Shown: in pieces, positions 17,154 to 39,380 of the stretch
How positions within the stretch are numbered: the first letter of the stretch is position 1
How the letters are laid out: every line of letters begins with the position of its first letter
DNA from: a virus
Lineage: Duplodnaviria; Caudoviricetes
Reading direction: 5' to 3' (one strand)
Virus record (IMG/VR): IMGVR_UViG_2939702853_000004
Span: 37,038 to 101,037 of that record
Length of the DNA stretch: 64,000 bases
Notes under the pieces: generated by a model
Told to the model about the DNA's origin: nothing
Database searches by the model: none
What the model saw: only the letters and a program-made list of their open reading frames with translations
Program-made: the position numbers and the translations under genes

Positions 17154-17304
17154 ATCATTACATCTCCTCTAATCCATTTATTTAGCAAGCTAATGTTCTC
17201 ACATGCTCAATTATTCTCATTGTAATTCATCGTAAAAGCCCAATTTTATCTTCCCTTAAACATATATAGTCTTACTTTCTTTACGTAATTAGAGGGGTCA
17301 ATCT

Positions 17305-18684
17305 CTATTCGATTAACCCCAATTTAATTGCAGCATATCTGGCTCTTATTGATAATTTTTCTGCCGAGTCTTTTTCAATTAATTCAACTTTTTGATCGTC
17401 TCTGTCTATGAAGTCCATGATTGCATGATCGACATGTGAGGTGCAGACTATTACAATATCCGATCTTCTCACTTTGCCTTCAACTATATGATAAGATTCT
17501 TCGAAAGGATTGTGCGTCTCTACATTGAAGCCATGAGAGCTTAGTCTATGAGAGTATTCAGAAATGTTCCTTGATCCAACAACTAAGATATTTAGACCTT
17601 TGCCAAATTTTAAATATTCTTTCTTGTTTGTTGAGCTGTCTTTTTTCTCGATAGTGATGGTTTCATTGTTTTTTTCAAAAGAATCATAATACACGTAAAA
17701 TACATAAGCAGTTCCATCTTCATATATTGCTGCACTTGCTGGTAAGTCGGGAATAAGTTTAGTCTTTGACGATGTTATTAGATATACCTTATTGTTTAAG
17801 TCATAAAAATACCATTGATCTTCCTCTTTTACTATAAATCCATAGTCCTTGTAGCTTGAGTCTGCAATCTTATTCTTATGAGCAATTTGTTGAATTCGTT
17901 TTTGTCTCTCTTCTTTTTCTTGTATTTCGGCTAAGTGTTTAATGCGAAGATATTTAGTATACATTTTATTTAATGGATAGAACGAAAATACGCTTTTATA
18001 AACAAGCCTCTCATCCAATAATGAAAATAGCTTAGCTAGGGAGATACTGTCGTATAGATTATCAACAATTTGCGAGTTCTTTTTTAGTTCTTTCTCCATC
18101 TGCCTGTTCTTAAATTTAAGTCGTCCAAATTCTCCCATTAGGAGATTGTACTTTTTTTCTTGAATCTTTCTGTTAGTCTCATTTCTAGCAATGACATCAT
18201 TAAGATGGCCCATCTTTTTTTGTTCAATTTCAAGTTGCGTTTCTAGGGTTTCTTTTTCGTGTAATAATTCCGATGAAGACAACCTTTTTAATTCTTTCGA
18301 CAGCTTTTGGTTATTAATTTTTTCTTTTTCAAATAATAAAGATTGATTTCTTAATTCTTCTAGCAAGATAGATTGATTATAAATCGTTAATTTTAATGAT
18401 TTTATAGTATTTTTTACTTTTATTCTTTCATTCTCTTCTATCGAATTCTCCTTACTAAATGCTTTGATATTTTCATTGCCCTTTTTTAGCTTTCTATTAT
18501 CTCTTTTCAGCTTGGTGAATTTATTTAACAATTCCTCATATTCTTTTTTATAATCAACAGGCTGCTTTGCTTCTTGTTTAACTGTCTGTGTCTCCCTAAC
18601 TTTTTTAAGAAGGAGATCATTTTTTCTTTTTTGTGCCACTTTATTTTTTTCATTCGCAACCTTTTTAAGTCTATTCTCAAACAT
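17305..18684 (-). CDS. coiled-coil protein with C-terminal DUF2325-like domain
   Basis: Long K/E-rich coiled coil; ILVVG...DIVIVCTSHVDH. Confidence 0.65.
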   Translation of the reverse strand: MFENRLKKVANEKNKVAQKRKNDLLLKKVRETQTVKQEAKQPVDYKKEYEELLNKFTKLKRDNRKLKKGNENIKAFSKENSIEENERIKVKNTIKSLKLTIYNQSILLEELRNQSLLFEKEKINNQKLSKELKRLSSSELLHEKETLETQLEIEQKKMGHLNDVIARNETNRKIQEKKYNLLMGEFGRLKFKNRQMEKELKKNSQIVDNLYDSISLAKLFSLLDERLVYKSVFSFYPLNKMYTKYLRIKHLAEIQEKEERQKRIQQIAHKNKIADSSYKDYGFIVKEEDQWYFYDLNNKVYLITSSKTKLIPDLPASAAIYEDGTAYVFYVYYDSFEKNNETITIEKKDSSTNKKEYLKFGKGLNILVVGSRNISEYSHRLSSHGFNVETHNPFEESYHIVEGKVRRSDIVIVCTSHVDHAIMDFIDRDDQKVELIEKDSAEKLSIRARYAAIKLGLIE

Positions 18685-18745: not shown

Positions 18746-19158
18746 TCATTGTGTCTCTAATTTAAAGTCGTATTGTGGCTTTAATGCTTTGCCCACCTTT
18801 CTTGCATCTCTACAACAGTTACCAGTACCACCCTTCGTCCCATCCCAAGCAGCAACAACAATTCGTGATTTATCTACCATGTATTCATTTCTTTTTTGCA
18901 TTTCGCTACATGATACTCGCCAATTGGTACTCCCTCTACACCATACAGTGGCAGCTCGTCTAGATAAACGACTTCATCTGCTGTATCTAGCATCTTCTTA
19001 TACCACAGATGAGTTTCCCTGTCTGTCCACTTTATTGGCTGATTTTTAAATGGTGCAGCAACAATATTGATTATGTGGGGAAGCACTTTTTCTTCATTCC
19101 TTGTACTGTCCAAAAGGCTATCTGGTCAAACCCGATTGCACCACCTGATATAAAATGT
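18746..19158 (-). pseudogene. YspA/DUF1273 SLOG-family (SPbeta yoqJ-like) remnant, 5'-truncated and frameshifted
   Basis: Three frames join as HFISGGAIGFDQIAFW / IVAAPFKNQPIKW...ADEVVY / MQKRNEYMVDKSRIVVAAWDGTKGGTGNC; N-terminus missing. Confidence 0.8.
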
Positions 19159-19698
19159 TCATTTTATCAACTTCATAATATCAACTGATGTGTCTATGTA
19201 TGTTTTGTTGTCATAAATTAAAAAGTCTCTCCATTTATTCGCAAAGCCTTTTGCCTCATTTAAGGTATCAAAACCCTTGATATGAGTAGAATACGTAACT
19301 CCCGATTTTTCATATTCAATGAAGTCTTGATGATATCTGTATTTCTTTCCTGCAAACCAAGGATCAATATAAGTACTTGTTCTATAGTCCCAAGGTTCCT
19401 TATATTGCTCCCACGTCTCAATTGGAAGTGGGACTTCACATTCTGCCCCTGCTACTATGACAGAATACTTTTTTCTGAAATAGTCTGATTTTGCATTTTG
19501 TCTTTTGCTTTCTGCGTGTTTTCTAATTGCTATTTGAAAATAAACAATAGGAGTTCGATACAGGAACTGTCTCCAGTAAGTAAAGTTCTTATAATGCTGC
19601 GGCTTGTCTTTGTTTAAAACCCAATCACTATCCATATGATATGTTAGATCTTTTTGAAGCCACCAAGATTTACTGTCTATAATTTCATTGATATCCAT
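19159..19698 (-). CDS. hypothetical phage protein
   Basis: ORF with GGAGG RBS, flanked by sites 19151 and 19717. Confidence 0.7.
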   Translation of the reverse strand: MDINEIIDSKSWWLQKDLTYHMDSDWVLNKDKPQHYKNFTYWRQFLYRTPIVYFQIAIRKHAESKRQNAKSDYFRKKYSVIVAGAECEVPLPIETWEQYKEPWDYRTSTYIDPWFAGKKYRYHQDFIEYEKSGVTYSTHIKGFDTLNEAKGFANKWRDFLIYDNKTYIDTSVDIMKLIK

Positions 19699-19743
19699 AG
19701 TACCTCCAGCTTTCTATAAAATATGTATTTTAAAGACTTTGCC

Positions 19744-19953
19744 TTATAGTTTTCTTCCGCATACGGGACAAAAATATATTTTAACTCCAAATAATGAACA
19801 CTTAATACTGCGATTTCCAACTTCACTATCCTCTAAATAATTGCAACTATTAATAAAAACCGTATAATCGCCTTTACCGTTGCTCATTAGTGGCTCCCTG
19901 TCTTCCGTCGGCCTTCCGGTACAGTGCTTACAAATATATTTTTCTTTAATCAT
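19744..19953 (-). CDS. small Zn-ribbon protein
   Basis: CKHC...FCPVCGRKL. Confidence 0.65.
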   Translation of the reverse strand: MIKEKYICKHCTGRPTEDREPLMSNGKGDYTVFINSCNYLEDSEVGNRSIKCSLFGVKIYFCPVCGRKL

Positions 19954-37034: not shown

Positions 37035-37054
37035 AAAAAAGAATAAGTTTTACC

Positions 37055-38053
37055 TTATTCTAAATTTGGGTACTTATTTAATAGTGTCTCCAAATTCAAA
37101 AACTCCCTAGTATAAATAGTACTCATAATATTGACACCATCTTTTGCTAGACCAACATTAAAATGTCTGCATATTGCCTCTATTTCATCACGTTGCAGTT
37201 TCTTGCTTGTCTTATATATATCTTTAGCCATTTTTAACATACCGGAATTTCTGATGTTTATCGGATTTAAATAATTATATCCTTCCATTAAACCAATAAC
37301 CTTGATTCTTTGTCTAATTGTGTGCGCACTGGTTTGCCCATCATCTTTATATGCTTTTCCAGCTCCTTTTATCACATATGACGAGGGAACAAGTTTTTTA
37401 TCTCTGCCTCCTGCACTTAAAATACTTTTATAAACAGTTTCTTCATTTGCCTCCTGTATGATTCTTACTAACTGTTCTGTTATCGTTACTTTTCTTAATT
37501 CCTCAGTCCCATACTTGTTAATATTTTTTAACAATATTGTTTTATTTATTGCATCAAGGTCTGAAATTTTTAAATTTAATAGTTCACTATTATCTCTGCC
37601 CATTATACCTTCAAATATAGCTTGAACTATAACAGCATCTTGTCTACTTGGTAATCCATATACAATTTTATTTATTTCATCCTCACTAAAGATTAATTTA
37701 TTTGTTTTATCTACAAAAGATTTATAATATTCAGTGTCACTTACAGGTGAAAGAGGATTTAGCTTGTTATCTCTAAGGTCTTGAGATATTGCCCATCTTA
37801 TGTAGCCCTCAATTGTCGCTCCATTTGTGATCGATGCTTGAACAGTTTTTGGCGATAAATAGTTAAGCAGCTCTTCAATTTCAGCTAAATTAAAGTTATA
37901 TAAGTCTTTGCTGTAATTTTTCTCCATACGACCTGCCCTTTTTAAAACCCTTGAAAATACTCCATATGTGTTTTGAGTAAAGTCTTGTAAGAACCTCAAC
38001 TTCTGCTCTTCGTTGTAAAATTCATCGTTGTATATTTCATTAGCCATTATCAT
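37055..38053 (-). CDS. YopR/MrpR(SroF)-like master repressor with degenerate tyrosine-recombinase fold
   Basis: YNEEQKLRFL N-terminus, FEGIMGRDNSELLNLK, IRNSGM without HxxR or catalytic Tyr; directly downstream of YopQ-like gene. Confidence 0.78.
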   Translation of the reverse strand: MIMANEIYNDEFYNEEQKLRFLQDFTQNTYGVFSRVLKRAGRMEKNYSKDLYNFNLAEIEELLNYLSPKTVQASITNGATIEGYIRWAISQDLRDNKLNPLSPVSDTEYYKSFVDKTNKLIFSEDEINKIVYGLPSRQDAVIVQAIFEGIMGRDNSELLNLKISDLDAINKTILLKNINKYGTEELRKVTITEQLVRIIQEANEETVYKSILSAGGRDKKLVPSSYVIKGAGKAYKDDGQTSAHTIRQRIKVIGLMEGYNYLNPINIRNSGMLKMAKDIYKTSKKLQRDEIEAICRHFNVGLAKDGVNIMSTIYTREFLNLETLLNKYPNLE

Positions 38054-39380
38054 TCACCCCAAAGTTCATTTTAAAATATTCTAATACTTTATTTTTAGAT
38101 CTACTTGAAGCATAATAAGCTCTTTTATCATTTAACAATTCAATTAAACAAGGATCGTGGAAATTTATTTGATCTACTGCTTCTTTTATGTCAGATGGAT
38201 TACGTCCAATATCATGAAATTGTTTTGCAATTTGCGTATACCCCAAGAACATCAGAGGATGATTTATTAAATTATCTCTGTAGGCATTGGGATTGCCGAG
38301 AAATTCATCATAATAGTAACTTGTTAAATATCCATAAAACTCAATCAAATATTTAGCAGTATCTTTATACTCCTTAAAATTAGATGGTGCGAATGTATTT
38401 TCAACTGCATATGATAAAATTGAAAAAGTTGTCAATTGTCCCGCTATCTCACTAATTCGTGGTGAGGATGCAATCTTATTGCCTTTGAGTTCTGATTTTG
38501 GGTCTTTTTGCAGATCTTTAACGACTTGATCAGAAAACCTTTCAGCTTTCAATTCTTCTATTCTCTCTTTTTTTACCACATTGACTGTATTTATTTGACC
38601 GAAATATCTTTTTGCAGTATCAGTGTCGTATACCCTTATAGACAAAATCATTTCAAGTTCGATTTCAGAATTAACAGTGAAAGCCTTAACAAAGCCCTGT
38701 AAGCGATGAAAACCATCTAATATAGAAACAATGGAACTTTTATTAAGAGTCAATTTTCTGTTCACAGAATCATATATAACAGGTGATTCTTCAAAAGAGT
38801 ATACATTCAATGTCATCATATCGGGTAAATAAGATTGATTAAGAACATTTTTAGCTATATCATCAACACTTTTTTTGTTGACATCTGGTATTGGTACTAC
38901 TCCATTTCTTCCTTCTTTGTATTTTGCGCTTCTTTGTGTTTCAAAATCATAATCAATAATATTTGCATGATACATATCCACAAGCACTTTACTTTTTATT
39001 TTTGTAACATATGTTTGTTCATCCAATTGGATTACATTTTCCATAACAAGAGGTAGTTCAATTACTACTTTTTTGTAGGTTTCTTGTACAATTCGCTCAG
39101 ACTCTTTCAATTCTTTTATACTGAAAAACTTTTCAGGGTTTAAATCTTCATCCTTCAAAACGTAATATATTCCATCTGTCAAAACTGCTAAAAAAGACAC
39201 ATCCATCGAACTTAAAGAAATACTTTCTCTTGAAACTTCATTAAATATTCCAAACGGCAAACCTTTACTAACTAGTTGCTCAACAATTTCGTTGACAATT
39301 TTGGCTTTACTTTTTATGGTTTTTATTTTTTTTATTAATAAATCTTCGAGTTCGTAACGATCTTTTTTCATATAGTACAC
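38040..39380 (-). CDS. YopQ(SroE)-like DndB/ParB-like (DGQHR-type) protein
   Basis: ILDGFHRL motif, F-x-QIN; SPbeta synteny with YopR. Confidence 0.75.
   Translation of the reverse strand: MYYMKKDRYELEDLLIKKIKTIKSKAKIVNEIVEQLVSKGLPFGIFNEVSRESISLSSMDVSFLAVLTDGIYYVLKDEDLNPEKFFSIKELKESERIVQETYKKVVIELPLVMENVIQLDEQTYVTKIKSKVLVDMYHANIIDYDFETQRSAKYKEGRNGVVPIPDVNKKSVDDIAKNVLNQSYLPDMMTLNVYSFEESPVIYDSVNRKLTLNKSSIVSILDGFHRLQGFVKAFTVNSEIELEMILSIRVYDTDTAKRYFGQINTVNVVKKERIEELKAERFSDQVVKDLQKDPKSELKGNKIASSPRISEIAGQLTTFSILSYAVENTFAPSNFKEYKDTAKYLIEFYGYLTSYYYDEFLGNPNAYRDNLINHPLMFLGYTQIAKQFHDIGRNPSDIKEAVDQINFHDPCLIELLNDKRAYYASSRSKNKVLEYFKMNFGVNDNG

Follow-up and report, generated by a model that had tools for sequence, protein, structure and literature searches.

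The promoter-early stem-loops (PeSLs) of T4-type phages, each consisting of a sigma70-type promoter and a terminator stem-loop, are described as mobile regulatory cassettes that serve modular shuffling, and recombination of one motif copy with another is given as the cause of their exchange (Arbiol et al. 2010, PMC2839356; Comeau et al. 2014, PMC4122927). In SPbeta, a 15-bp operator named SPBRE is bound by MrpR at about 10 promoters (Kohm et al. 2023, PMC10516654), and none of the SPBRE-bearing promoters listed is that of a yoq gene (PMC10516654). Described here is a decayed gene of the YpsA/YoqJ family (PF06908, DUF1273, SLOG) that is cut off on its 5' side at a copy of the palindrome TAAAA-N6-TTTTA, in a DNA stretch of 64,000 nucleotides from a virus of the Caudoviricetes (IMG/VR record IMGVR_UViG_2939702853_000004, positions 37,038 to 101,037), called the window below. 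The window belongs to a large SPbeta-like prophage of a Paenibacillus, with nearly all genes on the minus strand, among them those for a primase, a DnaB-type helicase, a Sak4-like annealing protein, and YopQ- and YopR/MrpR-like proteins. Deletion between direct repeats and relaxed recombination by phage single-strand annealing proteins are established sources of phage mosaicism, and the locus is probably best explained by a deletion of about 450 bp, or an exchange of equal effect, between direct repeats identical at 10 of 11 positions. On this simplest account recombination at short homology suffices, and a dedicated site-specific recombinase is not needed.

Sequences compared

Intact orthologues were those of the IMG/VR proviruses L008, L009, and L010, then L068, L081–L084, L086, and L087. 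Further loci were L066 (IMGVR_UViG_2919361683_000002), L015 (prophage of P. polymyxa GCA_034321965), L001 (SPbeta), and L002 (phi3T). The host assembly is a draft of 64 contigs, 99.95% complete. A DNA search of the 1.4-kb region against 60 related genomes gave no match except in the window's own genome, and a scan of the genome contigs with the remnant peptide gave no relative.

The SLOG gene remnant

The decayed gene occupies 19163..18749 on the minus strand. Intact genes of the family encode 222–224 aa with the motif S/C-F-T-G-H-R-P at residues 38–44, and T-G-H-R-P is present in all intact relatives; the remnant lacks codons 1–78 and hence TGHRP. From 19163 it encodes N-E-H-F-I-S-G-G-A-I-G-F-D-Q, directly preceded by two stop codons in the same frame, and its first frame has no start codon and no ribosome-binding site, the upstream DNA belonging to an unrelated open reading frame (ORF) of 179 codons, ORF179. 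The loss of the gene's 5' part and its replacement by ORF179, both proposed in the initial annotation, are thus borne out, as are two frameshifts, which could be placed in an alignment with intact alleles (A1). What is left is spread over three frames, as three stop-to-stop pieces separated by two -1 shifts (Table 1). The first shift had initially been guessed to lie within the run GAAGAAAAAG; the alignment put it elsewhere. Alignment A1 also revealed a 9-bp in-frame deletion between 18785 and 18784, absent from the earlier list of lesions, and a loss of homology at about 18756, with the last approximately 8 codons replaced.

Homology by blastn between the window and five intact or near-intact alleles runs from 19161–19164 down to 18756–18789, with an identity of 86–87% to L008–L010 and of 80% to L066/L068. 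Two of the pieces match PF06908 weakly (E 0.011 and 0.018; 16.2 and 15.5 bits against a gathering cut-off of 27.7), their scores staying below threshold because the gene is fragmented; intact orthologues at 80–87% DNA identity score 80.3 and 91.6 bits (80–92) on the same model. Judged from these alignments, descent from a PF06908 member is clear despite the sub-threshold score. The Gly-rich nucleotide-binding loop is kept (F-I-S-G-G-A-I-G-F-D-Q at 19154–19122). Substitutions private to the window number 4, 2, and 6 at codon positions 1, 2, and 3, respectively; these small numbers, spread over all codon positions, would fit relaxed constraint. The remnant is a true pseudogene of a YpsA/YoqJ-family accessory gene and not a functional member, and as a pseudogene it is in itself ordinary and unremarkable.

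Within the YpsA/YoqJ family, which also includes YpsA of B. subtilis, the remnant aligns over codons 77 to about 216, keeps the KMQKRNEYMVD and GGTGNC blocks, and is 46–47% identical at the protein level to SPbeta YoqJ and phi3T_113. It differs from the family in the missing 78 N-terminal residues, the two frameshifts, the 9-bp deletion, and the replaced C-terminus. In SPbeta itself, the frame of yoqJ (L001:2653-2845) is open for 53 codons before the annotated ATG and encodes K-T-V-C-F-T-G-H-R-P there; because of this open upstream frame, the annotated start of the 171-aa YoqJ looks to be placed too far downstream.

Two other decayed copies were met among the relatives. The SLOG gene of L066 (541-1215) is also a pseudogene, interrupted by a stop at about codon 10 and short of one base pair in codon 78 (GGAG-TGAACG). 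In L015 (4929-5029) a third decayed copy consists of the last approximately 100 bp of the SLOG gene only, with an ORF179 homologue and a 105-aa ORF upstream; the 5' junction of this copy carries no TAAAA-N6-TTTTA site.

Table 1 Features of the SLOG remnant and its surroundings (positions in the window; shifts and pieces as placed in alignment A1).
Feature	Position	Strand	Remarks
TAAAA-tgaaca-TTTTA palindrome at the junction	core 19151..19166		one of 35 perfect copies in the window
Crossover interval (predicted)	19151..19161	-	TGAACATTTTA; 10/11 identical to TGAACGTTTTA of the intact gene
SLOG remnant, piece 1	19077..19163	-	NEHFISGGAIGFDQIAFWTVQGMKKKCFP; corresponds to codons ~77-106 of intact alleles
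Frameshift 1	between 19076 and 19075	-	one base missing relative to L008, L009, and L010 (CCCCA-CAT); column 128 of A1
SLOG remnant, piece 2	18904..19074	-	IINIVAAPFKNQPIKWTDRETHLWYKKMLDTADEVVYLDELPLYGVEGVPIGEYHVA
Frameshift 2	A-run 18901..18903	-	AAA against AAAA in intact alleles; column 301 of A1
SLOG remnant, piece 3	18746..18901	-	MQKRNEYMVDKSRIVVAAWDGTKGGTGNCC...; carries the 9-bp deletion, 3' end replaced
ORF179	19159..19698	-	unrelated upstream gene of no known family; left arm and first spacer bases made up of its final codons, I-K-stop
Motif copy upstream of the ORF179 ribosome-binding site	19717..19732		homology to the L015 prophage begins exactly here
ORF459	17305..18684	-	weak C-terminal DUF2325 match; bounds the remnant on its 3' side, in place of the small MKYKIW... 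ORF of relatives
Motif copy GATAAAATTGGGCTTTTACGATG	17228..17250		22-27 nt kept in L009 (100%), L010 (96%), and L015 (100%)

The junction

Read on the minus strand, the junction is AAG TTG ATA AAA TGA ACA TTT TAT ATC AGG TGG TGC AAT CGG GTT TGA CC, in which the extended site ATAAAA-TGAACA-TTTTAT spans 19167–19150. The TGA inside the site (19161–19159) is the stop codon of ORF179, and the right arm is formed by the F-I codons of the SLOG gene. The breakpoint indeed lies inside the 16-bp site, blastn homology to the five alleles starting at 19161–19164.

At the same place intact alleles have GGAGT-TGAACG-TTTTA, that is, the right arm and five of the six spacer bases without the left arm. The reading in L008 is GGA GTT GAA CGT TTT ATA TCC GGT GG, and L009 and L010 have CGC TTT ATA; in general form the alleles read GTTGAACG(T/C)TTTATATC. 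Their left-arm position is filled by GGAGT, GGAAT, or GGACT (1–2 of the 5 arm bases), their right side by TTTTA or CTTTA. The stretch common to the window and the intact alleles therefore begins at T19161, as TGAAC-N-TTTTATATC. The right half-site is coding sequence of the gene, as had been stated, and the spacer aligns as well, TGAAC-A against T-GAA-CG (end of Val, Glu, Arg). Homology had been expected to stop within the spacer; it continues through the right arm and 5/6 of the spacer bases and ends at the left arm. A near-site had been expected in intact alleles; none was found in them, only TTTTA or CTTTA with TGAACG, behind GGAGT, GGAAT, or GGACT.

The other side of the junction can be read from ORF179 homologues. 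Those in L011–L012 and L015 end ...AAGTTGATAAA(A/G)TGAACA; L011 and L012, at 84% DNA identity, read ...AAGTTGATAAAATGAACA|ATTCAT, and the copy in the P. polymyxa prophage L015, 65% identical, reads ...AAGTTGATAAAGTGAACATTT|GACAAGGAG. Because these homologues end in the same way, sequence comparison assigns the left arm and spacer to the ORF179 module, whose 3' end carries them in three contexts. Homology of the upstream module, which extends through 19156–19153, overlaps the SLOG homology, which begins at 19161, over TGAAC(A/G)TTT(TA), 9–11 nt. Since the homologies from both sides cover this overlap, 19161–19151, the crossover is placed within it.

The partner repeat and the probable deletion

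The motif instance ATAAAATGAACATTTTA is present upstream of the SLOG gene in L068 and L008, and one A shorter in L010; L008 carries it as ATGATAAAATGAACATTTTAATATAAAGGGTG, and the same instance occurs in L066 and L068. The order in L008, L010, L066, and L068 is motif instance, 59-aa membrane ORF, SLOG gene, the gene after the 59-aa ORF being intact in L068, L008, and L010. The gene's TGAACGTTTTA lies 447 bp (L068) or 451 bp (L008) from TGAACATTTTA of the motif, and a deletion between the two in an L068/L008-type arrangement would yield the window sequence exactly. Synteny extends to the far side in L068, where a Zn-ribbon ORF matches window 19744–19953 and is followed by one non-homologous ORF at the place of ORF179; L015 likewise has ORF179 just upstream of its SLOG remnant. 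The 17-mer motif instance was found at 56 loci in viral contigs, mostly by chance, those of relevance being L060, L066, L068, and possibly L030.

Chance alone predicts about 6 matches of 10/11 to this 11-mer per window, both strands counted, and gives a probability of about 4% for one in the 900 nt downstream. It is an ordinary coincidence of a kind that repeat-dependent deletion can use, and the "cryptic site" of the initial annotation is just such a chance look-alike, nearly matching one motif instance in its spacer and right arm.

The arrangements in L068 and L008 suggest an ancestor of their type behind ORF179, with the order ORF179 or another gene, palindrome ATAAAA-TGAACA-TTTTA, ribosome-binding site and 59-aa membrane ORF, and intact 224-aa SLOG gene. 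Codons 77–81 of the latter (V-E-R-F-I; T-GAA-CGT-TTT-A) would have paired with the palindrome located about 450 bp upstream, at its spacer and right arm, and recombination between the two direct near-repeats would have removed about 450 bp, taking away the small ORF and the gene's first 233 nt. The crossover would have fallen within TTTTA (19155–19151), because 19156 (A) is of motif type and 19150 (T) of gene type. A single hybrid palindrome would be left, its right arm now being the F-I codons of the gene itself. As to how the exchange came about, the candidates are replication slippage, annealing of single strands following a break, and a phage annealing protein acting on short homology, and the Sak4-like protein encoded in the window counts in favor of the deletion account. 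Later decay would comprise the two 1-base deletions, the 9-bp deletion, and the replacement of the 3' end and the next small gene by the ORF459 module. As in known direct-repeat deletions, two near-identical 11-nt repeats about 450 bp apart would have given one hybrid copy with the interval gone; the present case differs in that one repeat belongs to a family-wide, regulatory-looking palindrome.

The initial annotation had suggested a search for the gene's 5' half at another site of the genome. Neither the 437 bp that are missing nor the 78 N-terminal residues have a match elsewhere in the 99.95%-complete genome, in an assembly that would not show circles. This marks the event as a loss and argues against a reciprocal exchange within this genome.

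Several points weigh against a deletion in such an ancestor. No relative with ORF179 directly before an intact small ORF and SLOG gene was found, and the ancestral arrangement is a composite, its right side taken from L068/L008 and its left side from L015/L011; pattern scans for the ORF179 3' end in genome and metagenome contigs gave only chance matches in unrelated organisms. Behind the ORF179 spacer, L011 (ATTCA) and L015 (TTTGA) have a degenerate right arm, for which reason an incoming ORF179 module may also have fused directly with the gene. The 1-bp deletion of L066 falls on the very nucleotide at which the homology of the window starts (chance about 0.4% for a random indel), which hints at a breakage hotspot that short homology would leave unexplained. 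Finally, the junction and the frameshifts are read from the assembly sequence.

Direct fusion would be an illegitimate or microhomology event between genomes, in which an ORF179 module from another phage or a chromosomal island, from a source like the OLD-family nuclease context of L011, was joined to the SLOG gene at TGAACA(TTT), 6–9 nt; the perfect palindrome would then be a by-product, with its left arm from ORF179 and its right arm from the F-I codons. Such an origin is consistent with the presence of ATAAAATGAACA at the ORF179 3' end in three unrelated contexts, in two of which the right arm is imperfect, with the few and patchily distributed relatives of ORF179, and with L015, where the beheading of the SLOG gene without a motif indicates that ordinary illegitimate events do strike this gene. 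We nevertheless consider it unlikely. In four related proviruses the exact instance, with a perfect right arm, precedes the gene by about 450 bp, so that a full site already present beside the gene is the simpler account, and in L015 ORF179 already adjoins the SLOG locus.

An artefact, with the junction or the frameshifts produced by misassembly or sequencing error in the 64-contig draft, is hardly credible. The frameshift at 18903–18901 does lie in a short A-run, and no sequencing runs were listed for the isolate, but the first frameshift is outside a homopolymer, the sequence around the junction is unique, and no assembler would be misled by a 16-bp palindrome whose spacer occurs once. Moreover, the adjacent ORFs of 459–742 aa are unbroken, a 9-bp deletion and a divergence of about 13% from the nearest alleles come on top of the remnant's frameshifts, and independent decayed copies exist in L015 and L066.

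The TAAAA-N6-TTTTA motif

Perfect copies of TAAAA-N6-TTTTA number 35 in the window against 1.2 expected from shuffles, and other spacings from 0 to 15 have 0–3 copies each. In 33 of the 35 copies an R precedes the motif (-1) and a Y follows it (+1); the 35 spacers show no consensus. The copies stand between stop codon and ribosome-binding site, at about 35 cistron junctions of the window; on the gene strand the upstream stop is the TAA of the motif itself in 14 cases and otherwise lies within a few bases, and the ribosome-binding site follows 1–18 nt past the motif. As RNA, the 5-bp AU stem averages +0.8 kcal/mol. A role as RNA hairpin is unlikely with so unstable a stem and no wobble preference among one-mismatch variants, and the motif more likely acts as a site bound by a protein, in DNA or in RNA, than as a free hairpin. 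The motif occurs in SPbeta at yoqC/D, yoqD/E, yoqG/H, and yoqI/J, and at three junctions in the phi3T locus; no description of it was found in a review on SPbeta searched for it.

In a comparison of 19 kb of the window with five related proviruses, 11 of 24 block 5' ends (1.2 expected) and 13 of 29 block 3' ends (2.0 expected) coincide with perfect or one-mismatch motifs, an enrichment of 7–9-fold at the ends of homology blocks, to be read with the caveat that gene ends, the position of the motifs, are where joints would be expected to survive in any case. Islands of 19–27 nt, motif plus spacer, are kept between unrelated flanks, and the TGAACA motif instance has five different upstream flanks. 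A 19-nt island, AATAAAAAGACTGTTTTAA, precedes yoqJ in SPbeta, but the extra gene phi3T_112 in phi3T (L002:2396-2420).

The motif resembles the PeSLs of T4-type phages as a short sequence repeated between accessory genes at which indel and replacement boundaries between related phages lie; it differs in being a 16-bp AT palindrome without a -35/-10 pair and with an unstable stem. With SPBRE it shares the character of a repeated intergenic element of SPbeta-type phages, and an MrpR homologue is also encoded in the window (37055–38053). It differs from SPBRE in standing at about 35 cistron junctions, and an identity with the SPBRE/MrpR operator was rejected, SPBRE differing in length, copy number, and locations. 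At window 37055–39380, MrpR/YopR homologues (PF22822 and PF22823) adjoin a YopQ homologue (phrog_5732), the same arrangement as in SPbeta.

Site-specific or homology-driven exchange

The initial annotation had read the locus as recombination at a cryptic site inside the gene, and as a footprint of a recombination junction rather than just an operator. This reading is supported in part. The junction does lie in the site and a motif copy was the place of exchange; a site-specific system is not demonstrated by this, and an operator role is untouched by these results. In the site-specific version, a phage recombinase would recognize RTAAAA-N6-TTTTAY and exchange strands in the 6-bp spacer, using a cryptic half-site in the gene, and the near-identical spacers TGAACA and TGAACG would permit this. 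The arm-spacer-arm geometry with its strict 6-bp spacing is that of a recombinase core site, and the enrichment at block ends and the islands kept between different flanks, also between SPbeta and phi3T, point the same way. So do the L066 deletion, exactly at the border of left-arm position and spacer in the intragenic sequence, and allele-mosaic breakpoints at nt 226–245 of the gene.

These breakpoints emerge from a comparison of alleles in L008 numbering: L008 and L068 are 98% identical before nt 226–245 and 74% for about 150 nt after it, and the identity of L009 to L008/L010 changes from 73% to 91% near the same place. The intact SLOG alleles thus appear to be mosaics themselves. Max-chi-square scans of nine intact alleles gave breakpoints at nt ~95, ~215–250, ~391–399, and ~593, each in a conserved block, as expected if recombination between diverged alleles falls where identity persists. 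The intragenic junction was therefore dismissed as a unique hotspot, being only one of about four or five conserved-block breakpoints.

The breakpoints at nt ~95, ~391–399, and ~593 accordingly argue against site-specific exchange, and further observations make it improbable. The intragenic partner in intact alleles is without a left arm (1–2/5 bases), and with no consensus among the 35 spacers, a tyrosine-type exchange from one site to another would be blocked. In the window, no candidate for a catalytic recombinase could be tied to the motif; the one tyrosine-recombinase-fold protein seen there is the MrpR homologue, and MrpR of SPbeta is reported to have lost recombinase function and to bind another element, SPBRE (PMC10516654). 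The genome assembly contains no reciprocal product, mosaic joints at gene ends, the place of the motifs, survive selection regardless, and the beheading junction of the L015 remnant has no motif.

A broader form of the idea seems still more doubtful. RTAAAA-N6-TTTTAY would be the core of a dedicated cassette-exchange system of SPbeta-type phages, an arm-binding phage protein would nick or exchange at the arm/spacer border, and TGAACG-TTTTA of the gene would be a repeatedly hit pseudo-site. The beheading in the window, the deletion in L066, and the mosaic switch at nt 226–245 would then be three independent lesions marking one position.

Neighboring modules

Neither ORF179 nor ORF459 has a match in PHROGs or PADLOC. 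A search for ORF179 among viral contigs gave none; its few relatives are patchily distributed, the closest named one being from Paenibacillus polymyxa. The closest homologues (87% aa identity, 212 aa) are in L011:4001-6532 and also in L012–L014, metagenome contigs, where they sit 90 bp upstream of an OLD/AriA/GajA-like ATPase-TOPRIM gene; the two genes may form a candidate two-gene defence module. In prophages ORF179 stands alone.

ORF459 is preceded by a sigmaA-like, TG-extended -10 element (TGTATAAT, about 18715–18708) and not by the palindrome, and looks like a moron-type insertion. Around the island at 17228–17250, the genes on one or both sides differ between the window and L009, L010, and L015.

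Significance

The locus is of value as a base-resolution example of gene gain and loss in SPbeta-type phages and of the part that their between-gene palindromes play in it. Here one motif copy would have recombined with a chance look-alike inside a coding sequence, as homology-driven cassette shuffling predicts, and the motif family offers many potential repeat partners genome-wide. The case is an illustration of cassette loss promoted by a motif family and no demonstration of the motif as a recombinase target. It parallels the T4 PeSLs in another phage lineage and with another motif, and it frames the choice between short homology and a dedicated recombinase in a tractable system, B. subtilis with SPbeta and phi3T, where the same motif flanks yoqJ.

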